From: Verrucomicrobiota bacterium
GTDB taxonomy: Bacteria; Verrucomicrobiota; Verrucomicrobiia; Methylacidiphilales; JBCCWR01
NCBI GenBank assembly: GCA_039193385.1
Contig: JBCCWR010000001.1
Location: forward strand, 7,755-71,754
Direction: 5' to 3'
DNA length: 64,000 nucleotides
Shown: piece after piece, positions 888 through 39,984 of the stretch
How the letters are laid out: each line of letters opens with the position of its first letter
Numbering within the stretch: the first letter of the stretch is position 1
The notes under the pieces: model-generated
Databases searched by the model: none
Seen by the model: only the letters and a program-made list of their open reading frames with translations
Told to the model about the DNA's origin: nothing
Made by a program: the position numbers and the translations under genes

Positions 888-1346
888 ATGGCAGAATTAA
901 AAGTTGGCAATAAGGCACCCGCTCTTACAGCCCTAAATCAGTCAGGTGAGAAAGTCAGTCTGCAGGACTTTGCGGGTCAGCGCGTTGTTCTGTATTTTTA
1001 TCCCAAGGATGATACGCCCGGATGCACCAAAGAGGCTTGTGCTTTTCGTGATAACCATAAAGCCTTTGCCAGTAAGAATACGGTCATTCTGGGAGTCAGT
1101 CCAGATGCACCCCAGAAGCATGAAAAATTTATCACTAAATATAACTTACCCTTCACCTTGTTGGCGGACGAAGATCATGCCATAAGCGAAAAGTATGGCG
1201 TTTGGGTGGAGAAGAGTATGTATGGCAAACAGTACATGGGCGTAGAGCGCTCAACCTTTGTTATTGATGTGGAAGGTAAGCTGGAGGCTATTTACCACAA
1301 GGTTAAGCCCGAGCCACATGTCATGGAGGTGCTGGAATCGCTCTAG
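888..1346 (+). CDS. bcp: thioredoxin-dependent thiol peroxidase (peroxiredoxin Bcp)
   Basis: 152 aa with the AhpC/TSA motif FYPKDDTPGCTKEACAFRD. Length and layout are typical of Bcp. Confidence 0.9.
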   Translation: MAELKVGNKAPALTALNQSGEKVSLQDFAGQRVVLYFYPKDDTPGCTKEACAFRDNHKAFASKNTVILGVSPDAPQKHEKFITKYNLPFTLLADEDHAISEKYGVWVEKSMYGKQYMGVERSTFVIDVEGKLEAIYHKVKPEPHVMEVLESL

Positions 1347-1361
1347 CTGATAAACTTTCCA

Positions 1362-1581
1362 ACCATGAAGAACATGAAGGAAGTGAAGGAAAAAGCCTTT
1401 TAACCCGCATTAACCAAACAGAACGAGTCAGATGTGTTAATGCTTCAGGAGAAGAGACTTTAGAGACAATGCAGTTGTATCAAAAAGTATTACGACAAGT
1501 TTGCTATAAAGTCTCCACTTCCAAGATCTTGCACAGATGATCGTGTTGCTATTGCATTATGCTCTTCAAGTTCTTCATGGT
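1362..1581. repeat. ~220-bp imperfect palindromic (MITE-like) non-coding element
   Basis: Outer inverted repeats are ACCATGAAGAACATGAAG (1362-1379) and CTTCAAGTTCTTCATGGT (1564-1581), matching 17/18. An inverted pair of dispersed-repeat copies sits at 1398-1436 (-) and 1515-1562 (+). Inner inverted repeats are AGACTTTAGAGACAA (1455-1469) and TTGCTATAAAGTCT (1501-1514). No credible ORF is present. Confidence 0.45.
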
Positions 1582-1607
1582 AAAAATGAGTTCTAAAGCT
1601 GACCGTC
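1558..1607. repeat. extra copy 1 of the comM-proximal 27-mer plus a diverged remnant of the comM 3' end
   Basis: TATGCTCTTCAAGTTCTTCATGGTAAAAATGAGTTCTAAAGCTGACCGTC aligns with the native sequence at 2450-2503 (CATGCTCTTCAAGTTCTTCATGGTAAATTAGCCCCAGAGTTGACGGTC). Confidence 0.6.
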
Positions 1608-1733
1608 ATTGATGTGGAAGGTAAGCTGGAGGCTATTTACCACAAGGTTAAGCCCGAGCCACATGTGATGGAGGTGCTGGAATCGCTCTAGCTGATAAAC
1701 TTTCCAACCATGAAGAACATGAAGGAAGTGAAG
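1608..1733 (+). repeat. 126-bp duplicate of the bcp 3' end plus 42 nt downstream (source 1263..1388)
   Basis: Position-by-position comparison at offset 345 gives 125/126 identical. The only difference, at 1322 versus 1667 (gtc/gtg), is synonymous in the bcp frame. Confidence 0.95.
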
Positions 1734-1888
1734 TTAAGACCACCCAAAAGGCATCAACACTGTAGTTTTTTTCTTCAAAAGAAGACATTTTCATAAGTTG
1801 ATTCGAGGAGATCAAGGCCAGGGCCAAGGTGTTTATGAATTTCGATAGCACAGCCAATGACTTGATTGGACAACTGGGTCAATTTCAT
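1734..1888 (-). pseudogene. 5' fragment of a GxxExxY-family (PD-(D/E)XK) gene
   Basis: From the ATG at 1888 it reads MKLTQLSNQVIGCAIEIHKHLGPGLDLLESTYENVFF, then TGA at 1775-1777. This is clearly homologous to the first ~35 codons of the intact gene at 2038..2409, after which similarity is lost. Confidence 0.8.
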
Positions 1889-1956
1889 TTTATTGCTTAT
1901 TTTTATAAAATCACCAAGACGTATGCGTCGTAAGAAAGAAGTGAGTTAAAACGCAT

Positions 1957-2010
1957 CATGCTCTTCAAGTTCTTCATGGTAAAAATGAGCTCCAAAGCTG
2001 GCGGTCGAGG
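1957..2010. repeat. extra copy 2 of the comM-proximal 27-mer plus a remnant of the comM 3' end
   Basis: CATGCTCTTCAAGTTCTTCATGGTAAAAATGAGCTCCAAAGCTGGCGGTCGAGGG. The minus strand still reads LDRQLWS, compared with the native comM C-terminus LDRQLWG*. Confidence 0.75.
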
Positions 2011-2037
2011 GCATGATGGCTATGGCATAATACGGAT

Positions 2038-2409
2038 TTAAAGAATAAAACTTTTCAGGCCATTCTTAAGTTTTGTCGTAATGAAATTAATAAGAAAGCC
2101 GTATTTGATTTTAGCCAGCTTCATGTATGTGATTAACTGAGCTTGATGAATGTTTTTAATTTCATCGACGCTCTTCAGTTCCAGTATGATCTGATTATCA
2201 ACCAAGATATCGATTCTGTAAGCACAGTCTATGGATACATTTTTGTATGTTACAGGTAGAGGGTGTTGTAATGTGAAGTTGATATGATGTGTTTGTAATT
2301 CGTAAGCGAGACATTTTTCATAAGTTGATTCCAGAAGACCCGGGCCTAGGTTTTTATGGACTTCGATAGCGCAGCCAATGACTTGATTGGATAACTGGGT
2401 AAATTTCAT
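2038..2409 (-). CDS. GxxExxY family protein (PD-(D/E)XK nuclease superfamily)
   Basis: 123 aa with the signature GPGLLESTYE (G-x-x-E-x-x-Y) and a D...ELK motif (RIDILVDNQIILELKSV). The size is typical of the family. Confidence 0.85.
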   Translation of the reverse strand: MKFTQLSNQVIGCAIEVHKNLGPGLLESTYEKCLAYELQTHHINFTLQHPLPVTYKNVSIDCAYRIDILVDNQIILELKSVDEIKNIHQAQLITYMKLAKIKYGFLINFITTKLKNGLKSFIL

Positions 2410-2476
2410 TTTATTGATACTTTTAAAAAATTACCAAGATTGAGAGGTTCATGCTCTTCAAGTTCTTCATGGTAAA

Positions 2477-4027
2477 TTAGCCCCAGAGTTGACGGTCGAG
2501 GGTGCGGTATTGCACCGCTTCACTGACATGATCGGCACGGATGTGTGGGCTCTCTTCTAAATCTGCGATGGTGCGGGATACTTTTCGGATGCGATCGTAA
2601 GCGCGTGCGGAGAGATTCAGATCTTCCATGGAGTAACGGAGGATGTTTTGAGATTCTTCATCAAGGGGTGCAAAGTTCGTTAGTTCTTTGGCATTCATCT
2701 GTGCGTTACACCAGATTTTTCTGCCATTGCTGCCATTGGATGATTGGTAACGTTTTTGTTGAAGCTGACGGGCTTGTATGATGCGTTGGCGAATGGTGGC
2801 CGAGTTTTCACCGTTATTTTGGTCTATGAGGTGTTTATGTTCCAACGCAGCAACCTCAAGGTGAATGTCAATGCGGTCTAGAAGAGGGCCAGATATTTTA
2901 TTGAGGTAGCGTTGCATGGCGTGATGCGAGATTTTTCCTCTGTCTGCATCGCCGTGAGATCCCGAAGGCGTGGGGTTCATGGCGGCGACAAACATGAAGC
3001 GCGAAGGAAAGGTGAGCGAACCGGATGCTCGGGAGATGGTGACGCTGCCATCTTCCAGAGGCTGGCGCAGCACTTCCAGTGCGGAACGTTTGAACTCTGG
3101 CAGCTCGTCCATGAAGAGTACGCCATTGTGCGCCAGCGAAACTTCTCCGGGGGTAGGATTGGCTGAACCTCCGATGAGGCCAATATCAGAAATGGTGTGG
3201 TGTGGAGAGCGAAAAGGGCGCTGTGCGATGATGGGTTGCTGTGGGCTGGTCAGCCCGCATACGGAATGGATGCGAGTTGTTTCAAGGGCTTCTTCAAGTG
3301 TGAGTGGTGGAAGGATGGTTGGTATACGTTTGGCCAACATGCTTTTACCCGCGCCAGGGTTGCCTACCATGAGGAGATTATGTCCCCCAGCAGCGGCAAT
3401 CTCAATGGCACGTTTGGCCGACTCCTGACCTTTGACCTCGGCAAAGTCGAGTGAATCTAACATACGGTTGTGGCTGGCAGCGGGATCAAAATTTCCCCGC
3501 TGCGGGGTGATGTCGAGTTTACCCTCGAGGAATTCGACAGCTTGTCCCAGGGAATGAAGAGGATAGACGGATAACCCTTCTACTACGGAAGCTTCTCCGG
3601 CATTTTCATGCGGCACGAGTAAACCTCGACAGCCTTTTTCACGAGCCAGTAAAGCCAGAGGCAGAATACCTCGAATAGCGCGTAGACTACCGTCCAGAGC
3701 AAGTTCCCCAGCCATAAAAAAGTGATGAAGCAGTTGAGGCTCCAGTTGTTTCGATGCGGCAAGAATGCTCAGGGCGATGGGCAGGTCAAAGATAGGACCT
3801 TCCTTTTTAATGTCAGCAGGGGCGAGGTTGATGGTGATGCGTCCATCCGGATGATCGAAGCCGCTGTTGGCTAGAGCTGTTTTAACACGATCGCGAGATT
3901 CCTTAACGGCTGTGTCTGGCAGACCTACCATAACGACGGCGGGAAGTCCGCGTCCAGAATCTACTTCCACTTCCACAGGAAAGGCTTGTACACCGATGAC
4001 CGCTCCAGACAATGCTTTCGCTAACAT
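2477..4027 (-). CDS. comM: YifB/ComM family Mg-chelatase-like AAA+ ATPase
   Basis: 516 aa. It has an N-terminal Lon-like domain (MLAKALSGAVIGVQAFPVEVEVD), Walker A GNPGAGKS, and VLFMDELPEF. Confidence 0.9.
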   Translation of the reverse strand: MLAKALSGAVIGVQAFPVEVEVDSGRGLPAVVMVGLPDTAVKESRDRVKTALANSGFDHPDGRITINLAPADIKKEGPIFDLPIALSILAASKQLEPQLLHHFFMAGELALDGSLRAIRGILPLALLAREKGCRGLLVPHENAGEASVVEGLSVYPLHSLGQAVEFLEGKLDITPQRGNFDPAASHNRMLDSLDFAEVKGQESAKRAIEIAAAGGHNLLMVGNPGAGKSMLAKRIPTILPPLTLEEALETTRIHSVCGLTSPQQPIIAQRPFRSPHHTISDIGLIGGSANPTPGEVSLAHNGVLFMDELPEFKRSALEVLRQPLEDGSVTISRASGSLTFPSRFMFVAAMNPTPSGSHGDADRGKISHHAMQRYLNKISGPLLDRIDIHLEVAALEHKHLIDQNNGENSATIRQRIIQARQLQQKRYQSSNGSNGRKIWCNAQMNAKELTNFAPLDEESQNILRYSMEDLNLSARAYDRIRKVSRTIADLEESPHIRADHVSEAVQYRTLDRQLWG

Positions 4028-4113
4028 CAGAATGTTATGCCGGGGCGTTGAAGCTATTGTCTAGCGATAACACTTGAATGTTTAAAAAAATAGAGCGATG
4101 TAACGTTTAATGA

Positions 4114-5415
4114 TCAGGTGGATCGCTGGCCGGCCCTTTTACGTACGGTTTTTTTAACGGTTTTTCGAGCCGTTTTCTTCGCTACGGGTTTTTTGGAGAC
4201 CGCTTTCTTGATCGTTTTTTTGGTAACTTTTTTGGCAGAAGCAGAACGTTTGCGAGCTATCTTTTTATTTGTTATTTTTTTAGCTGCCTTGCGAGGAGTG
4301 CTTGATGCAGGACGCGTATTGTCTACCGAAGCGAGGAGCAGATTAAGTGCTTTAAGGATATGGATTCCTTGAGGTATTTCAAATGCTTGAGGATTGTATT
4401 CGTTCTCTCGGCTGCGAGTTTTGATCCAGCGAATCTTGGCCGCCTCGGAGACATGGGAGATGTCTGATTTTTCAAGACGACGCACATGCTTGGGAAGTAT
4501 TTTAAATAAACCTTCCAAGCCATCACTGAAGCTCGCCATAGGGTCCATATGATGCAGGGCCTGCTGTACTTTCTTCGCATCGAAGGTAAGCTTAAGCTTC
4601 AAGATGGAGATGGTTTCAATCATCCAAGTCAGTGCGGCATCTGCAAGTTTGCTGTTATCAAGCTCGGATGGATCTTTGCTGGTTGTACCGCCGCCAACAG
4701 AGCTGTGTCCTCCAGGGAACCAAACTTCTATGACGCGTTGAGAGGCAGGAGAGTGTGTGCCTTTATCCATAGGCGTATTACAAAAAGAACGACGCTTTTC
4801 ATCAATGGCTACGGCATGCAGGGCATTTTTAATAATAGGACTGATGCTTGTATCATGAAACTGGTATTTCCCATTCCAGAGACGATCCAGAGGAATGAAG
4901 GGAACAATGTCGGGCAATCCGCGTGAACCGACGGTGTCCCAACATGCTACCAGATCTATGTTGATTTCACGGCTAAAGCTTTCGCGAAACTCGACCTTTT
5001 CCTTTTCGTTAAAATCCTTACCGCTTTTATACGTTTTAAAAGCTTCATCAATGTGGGAAAAGAATTCTGTTTTGAGAAGGCCGACATGGTAGATCATACC
5101 TGCCAGACTGCGCACAGTGTAAGCGCCGCGGCTGTAACCAAAAAAGTATAGCTCATCTCCCGGTTCATAATTGAGGATGAGAAAGCGATAGGCTTCTTTG
5201 ATGTTCTGGTCGAGTCCTTTGCCGAAGGCGCCGCCACGAAGTTTGCTCAGAGGGCTGTCTGTGCCGACACCAGAATCATAGTATTTGATTTGAGGAACAG
5301 GGCTGGGTCCGGTGGTGTCGAGAGTTTCAATAGCCTCATAAATTTTGAAAACATTGGTTTGATTCGCTGGTGTGAGCCAGGTTCCGTCACAACAAATAAT
5401 AAGACGTTTTTTCAT
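4114..5415 (-). CDS. DUF2235 (Tle1-like alpha/beta hydrolase) protein with a Lys-rich histone H1-like C-terminal tail
   Basis: The N-terminus LIICCDGTW...GVGT...FFGYSRGAYTVRSLAG (GxSxG) is typical of DUF2235. The last ~65 aa are KKAAKKITNKKIARKRSASAKKVTKKTIKKAVSKKPVAKKTARKTVKKTVRKRAG. Confidence 0.8.
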   Translation of the reverse strand: MKKRLIICCDGTWLTPANQTNVFKIYEAIETLDTTGPSPVPQIKYYDSGVGTDSPLSKLRGGAFGKGLDQNIKEAYRFLILNYEPGDELYFFGYSRGAYTVRSLAGMIYHVGLLKTEFFSHIDEAFKTYKSGKDFNEKEKVEFRESFSREINIDLVACWDTVGSRGLPDIVPFIPLDRLWNGKYQFHDTSISPIIKNALHAVAIDEKRRSFCNTPMDKGTHSPASQRVIEVWFPGGHSSVGGGTTSKDPSELDNSKLADAALTWMIETISILKLKLTFDAKKVQQALHHMDPMASFSDGLEGLFKILPKHVRRLEKSDISHVSEAAKIRWIKTRSRENEYNPQAFEIPQGIHILKALNLLLASVDNTRPASSTPRKAAKKITNKKIARKRSASAKKVTKKTIKKAVSKKPVAKKTARKTVKKTVRKRAGQRST

Positions 5416-5526
5416 ATGTCGAACTTCTTCCGGAAATTTTCGTCATAGGTGAATTAATGGAAGTTGCAATGAAAAAAGAAATTATTCTCTATTTTTAATA
5501 ATTACAGAACAGTTTCCAGCGTTATT

Positions 5527-38703: not shown

Positions 38704-39984
38704 TCACAGGGATCCGCTTGGCTTAATAGAAAGCAGATTCTCCGTTGAGCGGATGTAAATATGGTGATCAACGATAACAGGCGTAGCCAGGCAGCCTGTT
38801 TGGCCGATGTTAAATGCTGTGAGTAATTCAGGCTTTTTCCCCGCTTTCAGGATGTTTACCTGACCATCTACGGAAAGGCATATTAACTTTCCGTCTACCA
38901 GCACAGGTGACGCCCGGTAGATTTCTCCTCCATCCAGTTGCTTGGTCCAAATATGTTTTCCAGTTTTGCCCTCAAGACAAGTCATGGTTCTTTCCGCACC
39001 ATGAAGAAAATAAATCAGTCCATCTTTGTACGTTGGGTTGCAAACATCAGGAACGTCTCCCGTATATTCCCAGATTTTTTCATATTTATCCGCGTTAAGT
39101 TTAAGAGCATGCATTGTCTTACCACGAGGGAGTGGATGAAAAAGTATGCCATCACCGATGACTGGTGTTGCTACCTGCCGCCAGTTACGCATACGAGGGT
39201 TATCTCCCATATAGCCATAACGCCATAGCTCTTGACCATCCGTATGACTATGAGCCGTGATGTAATCTGCTCCCCAGACCATCATGATTTTCTGGCCGTC
39301 TAGTTCAGTGGGAAGTGGAGAACTGAAGGAAAGAGGTGACTCATGGAGTGCTTCCGATTCGCGTTTGACTTGCCAGACGGTTTTGCCTGTCTTGGCGTCT
39401 AGTGCCAGTAAAAGTGAATCAACCGTTTTAATCTTGAAGCCTCGTAGTGCCATGACGAAGAGCTTCCCATCTTCTAAATAAGGTGTGCTGGAATAGCCAA
39501 AGTGATGATCAAATGGTCCCAGCTCAGCGACGAGATCCCTTTCCCAGATCAAATCGCCTTGATGATCCAAGGCCACAAAGCGTGCTTTTCCGGTCATAAA
39601 ATAAACGCGTTCCTCATCGACGACAGGCGAAGGACTAGCACAGTGCCCTTCCAAAGGGAATTTACGTGCAGAATCAATTTTCTTATCAAAGAGAACTTGG
39701 CCGCTTTTCTGATCGATGCAGATAGCGCGGACTTCCGTGTGATTACCAGCCGTTGTAATAACAAAAATTTTGCCATTTTTAACAACAGGCGTGCCTCCAG
39801 CCATGCCAGGGAGAGCGGTTTTCCATACAATATCTTTATCTTTCCAACCTACAGGAAAACTTCCGGCTTCAACATCGACCGTCCCATCGTAATGCGGGCC
39901 TCGCCAATGTGTCCATTCGTAGGCTTGAGCTATCTGAAGAGTTACAAAATGAAAAACAATAAGGAAGATACATTTTGTTTGCAT
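38704..39984 (-). CDS. PQQ-like beta-propeller repeat protein (secreted)
   Basis: Signal peptide followed by repeated W-x-modules (e.g. GDLIWERD, GKTVWQV, GQELWRY, GKHIWTK) typical of PQQ/BamB-like propellers. Confidence 0.75.
   Translation of the reverse strand: MQTKCIFLIVFHFVTLQIAQAYEWTHWRGPHYDGTVDVEAGSFPVGWKDKDIVWKTALPGMAGGTPVVKNGKIFVITTAGNHTEVRAICIDQKSGQVLFDKKIDSARKFPLEGHCASPSPVVDEERVYFMTGKARFVALDHQGDLIWERDLVAELGPFDHHFGYSSTPYLEDGKLFVMALRGFKIKTVDSLLLALDAKTGKTVWQVKRESEALHESPLSFSSPLPTELDGQKIMMVWGADYITAHSHTDGQELWRYGYMGDNPRMRNWRQVATPVIGDGILFHPLPRGKTMHALKLNADKYEKIWEYTGDVPDVCNPTYKDGLIYFLHGAERTMTCLEGKTGKHIWTKQLDGGEIYRASPVLVDGKLICLSVDGQVNILKAGKKPELLTAFNIGQTGCLATPVIVDHHIYIRSTENLLSIKPSGSL

Follow-up and report, generated by a model that had tools for sequence, protein, structure and literature searches.

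We analyzed a 64,000-nt stretch of the Verrucomicrobiota bacterium contig JBCCWR010000001.1 (positions 7,755 to 71,754; hereafter the window), in which three stacked units lie between the host genes bcp and comM: one with an intact gene of the GxxExxY family, one with a broken paralogue and one that is empty. The units are built around short arrays of phased heptamers, which we refer to as arms. GxxExxY genes elsewhere have the same arrangement, and we conclude that the gene and two phased-heptamer arrays form one heritable unit and that the inverted-arm layout is the norm among GxxExxY genes of many phyla. The features of the locus, in window coordinates, are:

888..1346, plus strand: bcp (thiol peroxidase), the left host gene, which converges on the locus (Pfam AhpC-TSA, E 7e-44; NCBIfam PRK09437, E 5.5e-52)
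1362..1388, plus strand: arm A1, ACCATGAAG AACATGAAG GAAGTGAAG, three 9-nt units; the outer arm of unit 1
1389..1554, no strand: loop X1 of unit 1, 166 nt (six-frame search with hidden Markov models (HMMs), best E 1.8)
1555..1581, minus strand: arm A2 (reverse complement ACCATGAAG AACTTGAAG AGCATAATG), the inverted partner of A1
1582..1607, minus strand: comM-end', a decayed copy of the final comM codons and spacer, fused straight to a copy of the bcp end (repeat families D4, 91% to 1953-2006, and D5, 72% to 1983-2011)
1605..1706, plus strand: bcp-end', a duplicate of the final 85 nt of bcp, the stop codon and a 15-nt spacer (repeat family D1)
1707..1733, plus strand: arm A3, a 27-mer equal to A1, just past the 3' side of the truncated gene
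1775..1888, minus strand: truncated GxxExxY paralogue, 37 codons (6-nt insertion, frameshift, remainder lost)
1954..1980, minus strand: arm A4 (reverse complement ACCATGAAG AACTTGAAG AGCATGATG), the 5' arm of the truncated gene
1981..2011, minus strand: comM-end'', an older copy of the comM 3' end with the LDRQLW codons recognizable (repeat family D5)
2038..2409, minus strand: intact GxxExxY gene, 123 aa, with the predicted catalytic residues E27, D67, E77 and K79 present
2410..2446, minus strand: AT-rich spacer of 37 nt from the arm to the ATG of the intact gene (weak promoter-like match TTGGTA-18-TAAAAT)
2447..2473, minus strand: arm A5 (reverse complement ACCATGAAG AACTTGAAG AGCATGAAC), the 5' arm of the intact gene, 3 nt past the comM stop codon
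2477..4027, minus strand: comM/yifB (Mg-chelatase-like AAA ATPase), the right host gene, on the same strand as the GxxExxY genes (TIGR00368, E 1e-191)

Read along the comM strand, the unit with the intact gene has the order comM stop, A5, 37-nt spacer, intact gene and 26 nt, and the unit with the fragment has the order comM-end'', A4, spacer, truncated gene, A3 (inverted) and bcp-end'. The outermost unit consists of comM-end', A2, the 166-nt loop X1, A1 (inverted) and the true bcp end. Each arm is 27 nt long and is made of three 9-nt units, each a heptamer (CATGAAG here) plus two variable bases, and the outermost unit of an arm always reads ACC...GGT. An earlier interpretation of this DNA, made from its letters and open reading frames (ORFs) without database searches (the sequence-only reading), had described the repeat core as tandem 7-nt heptads; the true period is 9 nt. 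It had also noted a 27-mer shared upstream of the two genes, and the word is indeed identical upstream of both, with a length of 28 nt rather than 27 (TCATGCTCTTCAAGTTCTTCATGGTAAA, which contains CTTCAAGTTCTTCATGGT; 100% identity between 1956-1983 and 2449-2476). The three copies that it gave for the 18-mer ACCATGAAGAACWTGAAG, including the inverted copy at 1707-1724, are all present, but two others (1362-1379 and 1564-1581) had been missed, so that there are five exact copies, all inside 1362-2473. When up to three mismatches were allowed, the 64-kb window contained six matches, compared to 0.04 expected, and none of 100 shuffles reached six. The sixth match is a 3-mismatch site at 38998, and no further GxxExxY copies or arms were found elsewhere in the 64-kb window. 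Sequence resembling the comM end (1582-1607 and 1981-2011) adjoins each CTTCAAG...GGT copy.

The placement of both genes between inverted repeats, as proposed in the sequence-only reading, holds for the fragment, which is bracketed in this way, but not for the intact gene, which is flanked by two copies of the 18-mer in the same orientation and has no 3' arm after its stop codon. The intact gene has either lost its 3' arm or never had one. Arms A1 and A2 of the outermost unit pair with each other in the DNA fold, and loop X1 together with its arms folds with a z score of -5.1 relative to shuffled sequence. A promoter scan of the locus gave sites no more frequent than in shuffles. The ATG within the 5' arm of the intact gene opens a short upstream ORF, MKNLKSMNLSILVIF followed by a stop codon (2423-2470, minus strand), and the arm ATG before the fragment falls in a 30-codon ORF that ends in MKNLKSMMRFNSLLSYDAYVLVIL and a stop codon (1903-1995, minus strand). 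Both of these ORFs stop just short of the AT-rich spacer, and they may be leader peptides or a coincidence.

The product of the intact gene is a full-length member of the GxxExxY family, based on profile matches to PF13366 (PDDEXK_3; E 7e-43, 146 bits against a cut-off of 22) and TIGR04256 (E 6e-44, 149 bits against a cut-off of 35), both of which span residues 5-119. The 5' paralogue fragment that had been read as running 37 codons to a TGA corresponds to the ORF at 1775-1888 on the minus strand, which aligns with the intact protein over its residues 1-31 (85% identity in tblastn, E 2e-13; HMM E 5e-15) and scores 25.8 bits to PF13366 and 26.8 bits to TIGR04256, above the Pfam cut-off only. 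Third codon positions account for 10 of the 14 sites that differ between the two genes over their first 99 nt, and the fragment has a 6-nt insertion (GLDLLES versus GLLES) followed by a frameshifting deletion of 1 nt, in keeping with the mostly third-position changes and 6-nt indel described in the sequence-only reading. Since the differences are mostly synonymous (nonsynonymous divergence, dN, 0.055; synonymous divergence, dS, 0.53), both copies appear to have evolved as working genes.

We assign the protein to the PD-(D/E)XK superfamily based on its core fold and its E...D...ExK motif, with nuclease activity as the predicted function. Residues E27, D67, E77 and K79 are invariant in 24 sequences from several phyla that are 67-72% identical to the window protein, and the AlphaFold2 model (mean predicted local distance difference test score 81) has helices and strands in the order expected for the alpha-beta-beta-beta-alpha-beta core. 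A profile search of the PDB gave no match at E values up to 1, and the best Foldseek matches were weak (E of 0.1 or higher): lambda exonuclease, the HsdR nuclease domain, BglII and EndoMS. The only Pfam matches of the protein are PDDEXK_3 and a sub-threshold Cas4. Similarly, the PADLOC defence models gave only weak matches to the Cas4 core (E of 4e-4 or higher, residues 55-107), as did PHROGs. The family is very large, with 18,998 clusters at 50% identity for E values up to 0.001 and 5,730 at 1e-10, and it occurs in bacteria of soil, sediment and water as well as in a species of Bacteroides. The papers that mention it give no function for it. Natural two-domain GxxExxY proteins exist (P0361, P0362, P0364, and P0365; 276-295 aa), in which the second domain has no ExK motif. 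This suggests that the fusions are pseudo-dimers with one active site, and such fusions hint that the working unit may be a dimer.

To describe the surroundings of other family members we used an unselected metagenome set, the best 80 of at least 580 matches, chosen by protein similarity alone, of which 71 had enough flanking sequence. At least two heptamers were present within 70 nt upstream in 50 of these 71 loci, inverse heptamers within 70 nt downstream in 49, and both in 41. An inverted-repeat score of 14 or more was reached by 38 of the 71 loci, compared to none of 280 control windows. The inspection of homologue flanks that had been proposed as a check on the sequence-only reading therefore found inverted termini in other phyla, the opposite of the outcome that would count against a cassette. 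The arms are also closely fitted to the gene. In a set of 32 loci whose arms are clear, 19 have only 0-1 nt between the end of the 5' arm and the ATG, and 25 have a 3' arm that begins no more than 10 nt from the last codon. The 37-nt spacer of the window gene is unusual because the arm abuts the ATG in most homologues. Several database homologues begin with extensions such as MKDMKNMK, MKRMKDMKR or MKSMKSMK, which are translated arm. Cultured Bacteroidota have the same layout with the heptamer CACAGAG, as in Bacteroides finegoldii (between radA and the gene for an FAD-dependent protein) and Bernardetia. More distant members (33-45% identity) bear other repeats, including CGCAGAG arrays in Gemmatirosa and CGCGAAG in Sphingomonas, where the gene lies between fabD and fabG; other distant members have a single inverted 11-mer (Treponema) or direct repeats (Prevotella and a Fusobacteria bacterium).

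The arms are also common as intergenic repeats. A scan of one genome per species for the 18-mer gave at least 120 loci, compared to about 35 chance matches that we estimate for the whole collection, from Methylococcaceae, Lentisphaeria, Desulfobacterota, Acidobacteria, Verrucomicrobia, Planctomycetota and others. Among the loci listed, 56 have a third heptamer in phase and 37 have a complete hairpin with a short loop (ACCATGAAG-NNCATGAAG-NNCATGAAG / loop / inverse), while a GxxExxY gene or remnant is nearby in only 2 of 120. The distance from an arm to its inverse is bimodal, with loops of 7-135 nt and of 373-450 nt, and the long class consists of GxxExxY genes. We found no other gene family within these arms, all loops being either short or of the size of a GxxExxY gene. 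Searches of the open-access literature by family name, accession and repeat string found no description of the arms; thus, the family is already known and named and its arm architecture is, as far as we found, undescribed.

The heptamers occur in three main dialects, CACGAAG (54 loci), CATGAAG (14 loci, the window included) and CACAGAG (4 loci), and triple heptamers with a period of 9 in all sampled DNA are essentially limited to these three. Arm dialect and protein diverge together: both arms of one cassette always have the same dialect, and the nearest protein neighbor has the same dialect in 67 of 72 cases, compared to 43 expected (permutation p < 0.0002). Between the two arms of a cassette, heptamer positions are about 97% complementary, whereas the 2-nt spacers are complementary in only 35%, and G:T mismatches are about as numerous as A:C mismatches (at spacer positions 26 versus 23; in the cores 11 versus 10). 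This low spacer complementarity and the lack of a wobble bias indicate that the word and its phasing are conserved rather than pairing as such. In addition, one heptamer has been kept across phyla despite saturated synonymous sites, an observation that demands a partner able to recognize this sequence. Arms have a sharp outer boundary, (T-rich)-C-A-C-C-A-Y-G-A-A-G, where 88 of 89 ends have A at position -1, and this boundary is mirrored as ...GGTG-(A-rich), so that the T-rich left and A-rich right flanks extend the inverted repeat. At one locus (L156, around 919-1380) the dialects are nested, with a CATGAAG arm upstream and a CTTCGTG arm followed by a CTTCATG arm downstream, as if a CACGAAG-type cassette were within a CATGAAG hairpin.

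Comparison of related loci showed that cassettes invert, duplicate in tandem, and lose their interior to leave solo hairpins. The truncated copy in the window belongs to this series of decay by internal deletion. An intermediate is present in L126 (587-708), where a short loop encodes NEIILELKSVEALKDGLKNFIL and a stop codon, the remainder of a gene shortened by two deletions between 8-nt direct repeats; another, L054, retains only the C-terminal third of the gene. In L126 the deleted copy lies beside an intact one, and a 130-nt block of arm, spacer and solo hairpin is present in duplicate around an ORF6N gene. A Desantisbacteria population shows polymorphism of this kind: in L236, L238, and L241, though not in L232, an additional copy with an internal deletion precedes the intact one. 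Five tandem 5' arms with a period of 54 nt precede a single GxxExxY gene in L170 (93-333), where they are translated as a spurious 96-aa ORF (TTKDTKSTKG...), and L158 has several near-identical solo hairpins.

Presence and absence can be compared at the convergent recN-satP junction of Acidobacteria, at which contigs with identical SatP carry the cassette in an intact, frameshifted or truncated state. One contig with neither cassette nor arms (L211) has an unrelated 60-nt spacer and a different recN C-terminus, and a sister lineage (L224-L230) has a 24-nt spacer without arms. The presence/absence comparison suggested in the sequence-only reading showed that sites that lack the cassette have no arms and filled sites have both, which indicates that the arms belong to the cassette and not to the site. 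The cassette occurs there in both orientations (7 and 5 contigs), with proteins that are 81-99% identical when the frame-disrupted L192 is set aside. The median dN among these copies is 0.07 and the median dS is 1.9, with a dN/dS of about 0.05. The recN-satP copies have therefore persisted vertically for a long time with repeated inversion and strong purifying selection, and intact genes in general are kept by strong purifying selection. The cassette allele at recN-satP carries its own version of the last host codons, which parallels the comM-end copies in the window. At another acidobacterial site, selA-[cassette]-selB (L186, 22-1059, and L204), selA has no stop codon of its own and reads through the arm (...TEYHHEAHEGHEDGI and stop), which implies that insertion replaced the end of the host gene within the operon.

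Taken together, these observations suggest a self-contained element composed of a nuclease and its binding sites, in which the nuclease would cut its own arms and repair would copy, flip or amplify the unit; we regard this proposal as evenly balanced between right and wrong. The encoded nuclease would be the sequence-specific partner of the heptamers, probably as a dimer or a higher oligomer on the three phased sites of each arm. Cleavage at the arms would create breaks whose repair by recombination could leave the unit copied, flipped or locally duplicated. This mode of working would resemble that of a REPIN-RAYT system (a repetitive extragenic palindromic (REP) element with its REP-associated tyrosine transposase, RAYT) or of a miniature inverted-repeat transposable element (MITE) plus its transposase, but with a nuclease of the restriction-endonuclease fold. 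Of the selfish or homing-type cassette envisaged in the sequence-only reading, the cassette survives and can be generalized across phyla; a simple selfish homing gene is harder to reconcile with a dN/dS of about 0.05 at saturated dS, with identical proteins that were always in one genomic context and with target-site duplications having been looked for and not seen.

Several points weigh against this nuclease-and-arms element. Action of the protein on its own arms is a prediction from the architecture, and a PD-(D/E)XK nuclease alone cannot rejoin DNA. No direct target-site duplication was seen at arm ends, and no clean insertion junction was found at the sites compared. The filled recN-satP alleles differ from those lacking the cassette by a replacement that includes the last recN codons rather than by a simple insertion, so that spread could be by ordinary homologous recombination; the alleles without the cassette are also too diverged at the junction to define a target. 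Two exact proteins that are present on many contigs are always in one genomic context, which gives no direct sign of recent movement. The intact gene of the window departs from the canonical layout in its 37-nt spacer and its lack of a 3' arm. Finally, orthologous copies are under strong purifying selection, which a purely selfish endonuclease gene would not usually show and which leaves room for a function at the level of the host. Among phage records (0 of 50,697 matched), IMG/VR viral contigs (no relatives) and plasmid records (8 of 72,556 matched, all typed as non-mobilizable), no vehicle for spread between phyla was identified.

The stacking in the window is a separate matter, for which ordinary segmental tandem duplication followed by decay, through slippage or unequal exchange at a palindrome-rich spot and unrelated to cassette mobility or to the nuclease, is a possible account, albeit one we hold to be doubtful. 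The copied segments extend beyond the arms into both host genes: 1605-1733 is a duplicate of the bcp 3' end plus arm (1260-1388) with 98% identity over 129 nt, and there are two copies of the comM end. The joint of comM-end' with bcp-end' is a simple junction with 2-3 nt of microhomology, and the levels of divergence are compatible with two dated events. As the stacking includes the ends of both host genes, local segmental duplication or recombination fits it better than clean insertion of cassettes. However, unrelated lineages (L126, L236-L241, L158, L170) repeatedly show an intact copy with an internally deleted one or an arm duplicated along with its flank, and this recurrence implies that some property of the arms promotes such duplication. 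In addition, the loops of units 1 and 2 gave no useful alignment despite flanks that are 91-98% identical.

We propose the following history for the locus. The ancestral state would have been comM-[arm-gene-arm]-bcp, and two duplications would have followed that carried along the 3' ends of comM and bcp. The first may have extended from within the comM end to 26 nt past the gene, giving a second gene copy, and one of the two copies would later have lost its interior; this oldest extra copy now lacks most of the gene. The displaced comM end (comM-end'') has drifted to 83% identity with the live one (2474-2502), with 3 of 5 differences synonymous, and the genes differ at 14 of 99 nt, while the 28-mers beside them are identical, which points to constraint or gene conversion. 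The younger duplication, based on bcp ends that are 98% identical and on comM-end copies with arms that are 91% identical, probably ran from within bcp to within the displaced comM end and produced the outermost unit. This unit would now hold unrelated or unrecognizable sequence in loop X1, where no GxxExxY remnant was detectable with HMMs in six-frame translations.

An RNA-level module is the main alternative to DNA cleavage at the arms, one that we find unlikely, while still deserving of weight. A read-through transcript from the upstream host gene would have arms that pair into a stem enclosing the ORF, and this stem would be processed (for example by RNase III, as in the ORF-bearing intervening sequences of 23S rRNA) or would control translation or stability; the purine-rich GAAGG units would also serve as a ribosome-binding site, and the work of the nuclease would be unrelated to the arms. 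With the arms directly against the start and stop codons, neither a promoter nor a terminator fits in between, which agrees with this expectation, as do the same-strand bias of the upstream neighbor (43 versus 17), the read-through of selA into the arm and the predicted fold of the minus-strand transcript, in which the arms pair. Vertical persistence with a dN/dS of about 0.05 would fit a useful gene, and some genes are flanked by two complete hairpins instead of lying within a single one (L242, L134, L146, L148, and L158). On the other hand, the spacer dinucleotides show no covariation and G:U is not favored over A:C, the same heptamer is kept across phyla in which synonymous sites are saturated, and dialect goes with protein similarity. 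Solo hairpins that contain no gene are also frequent, and they are themselves duplicated. A search of Rfam found nothing relevant in the window at E values up to 10 or in 15 related loci at the gathering threshold. An RNA-level module and an element that cuts its own arms are not mutually exclusive.

Integron-like or other site-specific recombination, in which the 28-mer by the comM stop codon would be a core site for the serial insertion of promoterless cassettes by a recombinase encoded elsewhere, is in our view very improbable. It would account for the three 28-mer copies (two identical and a third at 96%), each preceded by comM-end-like sequence in the manner of displaced attachment sites, and the units do resemble integron cassettes in being small (about 400-500 nt, compared to the roughly 0.5 kb of promoterless single-ORF cassettes), in having an imperfect palindromic site and in being stacked at one place. 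The adjacent genes, which encode Bcp, ComM and a Tle1-like protein, include no recombinase (the rest of the genome was not scanned for an integrase), and there is no attC-type site. The bcp end is duplicated as well. Elsewhere, the arms are inverted arrays on both sides of the gene rather than a single attC-like site, and the cassettes are scattered over dozens of unrelated sites instead of being arrayed on one platform. In this regard, the neighbors of 56 cassettes belong to 86 Pfam families with no enrichment.

The window derives from a metagenome-assembled genome (MAG), and an artefact of assembly that joined strain variants of a simpler locus would be one source of tandem structure. An independent Logan assembly (run SRR22824305) breaks exactly inside the repeated 28-mer, at position 1960, as would be expected of a true repeat in a short-k assembly. 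Its contig is 100% identical to window positions 1960-5434 and thus confirms that part of the locus; the left-hand units (1340-1960) are seen in the MAG assembly only. An exact search with the GxxExxY protein gave this single short contig, and one with Bcp gave no match. The repeated parts have diverged (72-98% identity) rather than collapsed, the joint of comM-end' with bcp-end' shares no long k-mer that an assembler could follow, and analogous tandem structures are present in other assemblies; we therefore consider such an artefact highly unlikely. A shared bidirectional terminator, or generic host hairpins to which GxxExxY genes are adjacent by chance, is scarcely credible, even though the genes on either side of the repeats converge and pairing of the arms is possible, as the stems are AT-rich where an intrinsic terminator has a G+C-rich stem and a U-run, the T-run before the stem and the A-run after it are in the wrong order on either strand, the terminator scan gave no site at the arms, GxxExxY genes of many phyla are framed by these same heptamers, and cassette-lacking sites have no arms.

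Among known systems, REPIN-RAYT is the closest analogue in behavior. The likeness lies in a single small protein that cuts DNA (as is predicted here) and is encoded between inverted copies of a short palindromic repeat, in the many gene-less intergenic copies of this repeat, which are also present here, and in largely vertical, long-lived inheritance with purifying selection on the protein. Unlike the RAYT, which is an HUH/Y1 transposase (PF01797), the protein here is a predicted PD-(D/E)XK nuclease. REPs carry a GTAG or CGTC tag, compared to the three phased heptamers of the GxxExxY arms, and the GxxExxY gene sits within the hairpin loop. RAYTs are typically single-copy, whereas GxxExxY proteins were described in the sequence-only reading as a multi-paralogue family; two side-by-side copies are what is seen at this locus.

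MITEs and their parent transposons share with the cassettes terminal inverted repeats with repeated subterminal sites, gene-less derivatives that arise by internal deletion, and presence/absence polymorphism. The cassettes differ from these and from insertion sequences in that they encode no transposase of the DDE, serine, tyrosine or HUH type, inspection of their inverted repeats showed no target-site duplication, and recent copies at new sites were not found. Homing endonuclease genes, either free-standing or intron-borne (such as the PD-(D/E)XK type I-Ssp6803I), are small nuclease genes that propagate through break repair, and a GxxExxY gene, with its restriction-endonuclease fold, could propagate in the same way. 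To our knowledge, homing genes lack terminal inverted repeats and are directed at a single conserved site in the host. Once fixed, they degenerate, in contrast to the dN/dS of about 0.05 of GxxExxY genes at a fixed site and to the diversity of GxxExxY sites. The intervening sequences of 23S rRNA, which are excised by RNase III, encode S23p, a four-helix-bundle protein. Like the cassettes, they have an ORF of about 120 codons between inverted repeats that can base-pair once transcribed, and they form a multi-copy family across phyla. They differ in protein family and in lying inside rRNA, a context not seen for the cassettes, and we know of no phased heptamers in them.

Based on these comparisons, there is a real chance that the cassettes are a distinct class of element. 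In its fullest form, the proposal is of an undescribed, cross-phylum class of autonomous cis-trans elements, in which a minimal PD-(D/E)XK nuclease would read a 7-bp word phased every 9 bp in its own inverted termini, copy, invert and amplify itself, and leave populations of solo hairpins. The REPIN-RAYT lifestyle would then have arisen twice, independently, here with dialects that are programmable (CACGAAG, CATGAAG, CACAGAG, and others), and we advance this idea tentatively, as somewhat short of probable. Its interest is that a gene from a very large family without an assigned function is packaged with a phased DNA word that co-diverges with the protein, which provides a first concrete and testable hypothesis for the family, namely that the substrate is the protein's own arms. 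If this is true, a new protein fold would join the few enzymes that maintain populations of intragenomic repeats, and small nucleases with modular 7-bp specificity might be obtained. The arms also explain a number of annotation artefacts (N-terminal extensions of the MKDMKNMK or HHEEHEGHE type and host genes that read into an arm), assembly breaks at the repeats, and a class of intergenic hairpins in several phyla.

The neighborhoods of individual cassettes provided some further observations. We considered a link to genes of DNA recombination, based on cassettes that lie directly downstream of comM in the window, radA in B. finegoldii (L205) and recN in Acidobacteria (L184); the neighbor survey gave no enrichment, and these associations are probably a coincidence. 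In L150 (710-1933) and L160 (1585-2907) the 5' arm begins at the very end of a gene for an HsdS-like type I restriction specificity protein, and Cas1, a TIR-domain ATPase and a DNA methylase are among the other neighbors, again with no overall enrichment. In Syntrophomonas zehnderi OL-4 (L039, 785-802) the 18-mer lies inside a CRISPR spacer with the repeat GTCGCACCCCGTGCGGGTGCGTGGATTGAAAC on both sides, which could be a chance match or a spacer against CATGAAG-arm DNA. The proteins nearest to the ComM of the window are 66-67% identical to it, and bcp is not adjacent in their loci. On the other side of comM, 4114-5415 (minus strand) encodes a protein with a Tle1-like phospholipase domain (PF09994, E 5.5e-79) and a long lysine/alanine-rich C-terminal tail that resembles histone H1.

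In two groups the heptamers form part of longer repeats. In MAGs of Lentisphaeria/Lentisphaerota (L007, L008, L053, L078, L086, and L098) about 45 nt of conserved sequence (AAACCCGGGAGCGCCGGTCGCCTGACCGGCTTTATG...) come after a CATGAAG arm, and phased CACGAAA units often come before it, which looks like a composite repeat family. The RNA Acido-Lenti-1, considered as a lead for these loci, had no match in the Rfam search. In Methylococcaceae / Methylobacter (L006, L015, L016, and L038) a longer palindromic repeat is built around the heptamer hairpin, and the flanks of this repeat (...AACTTGAGCAAGTTTTATTTTTAA / ...TAATTGCTTAAATTAA...) recur in a MITE-like manner at different loci within one genome.

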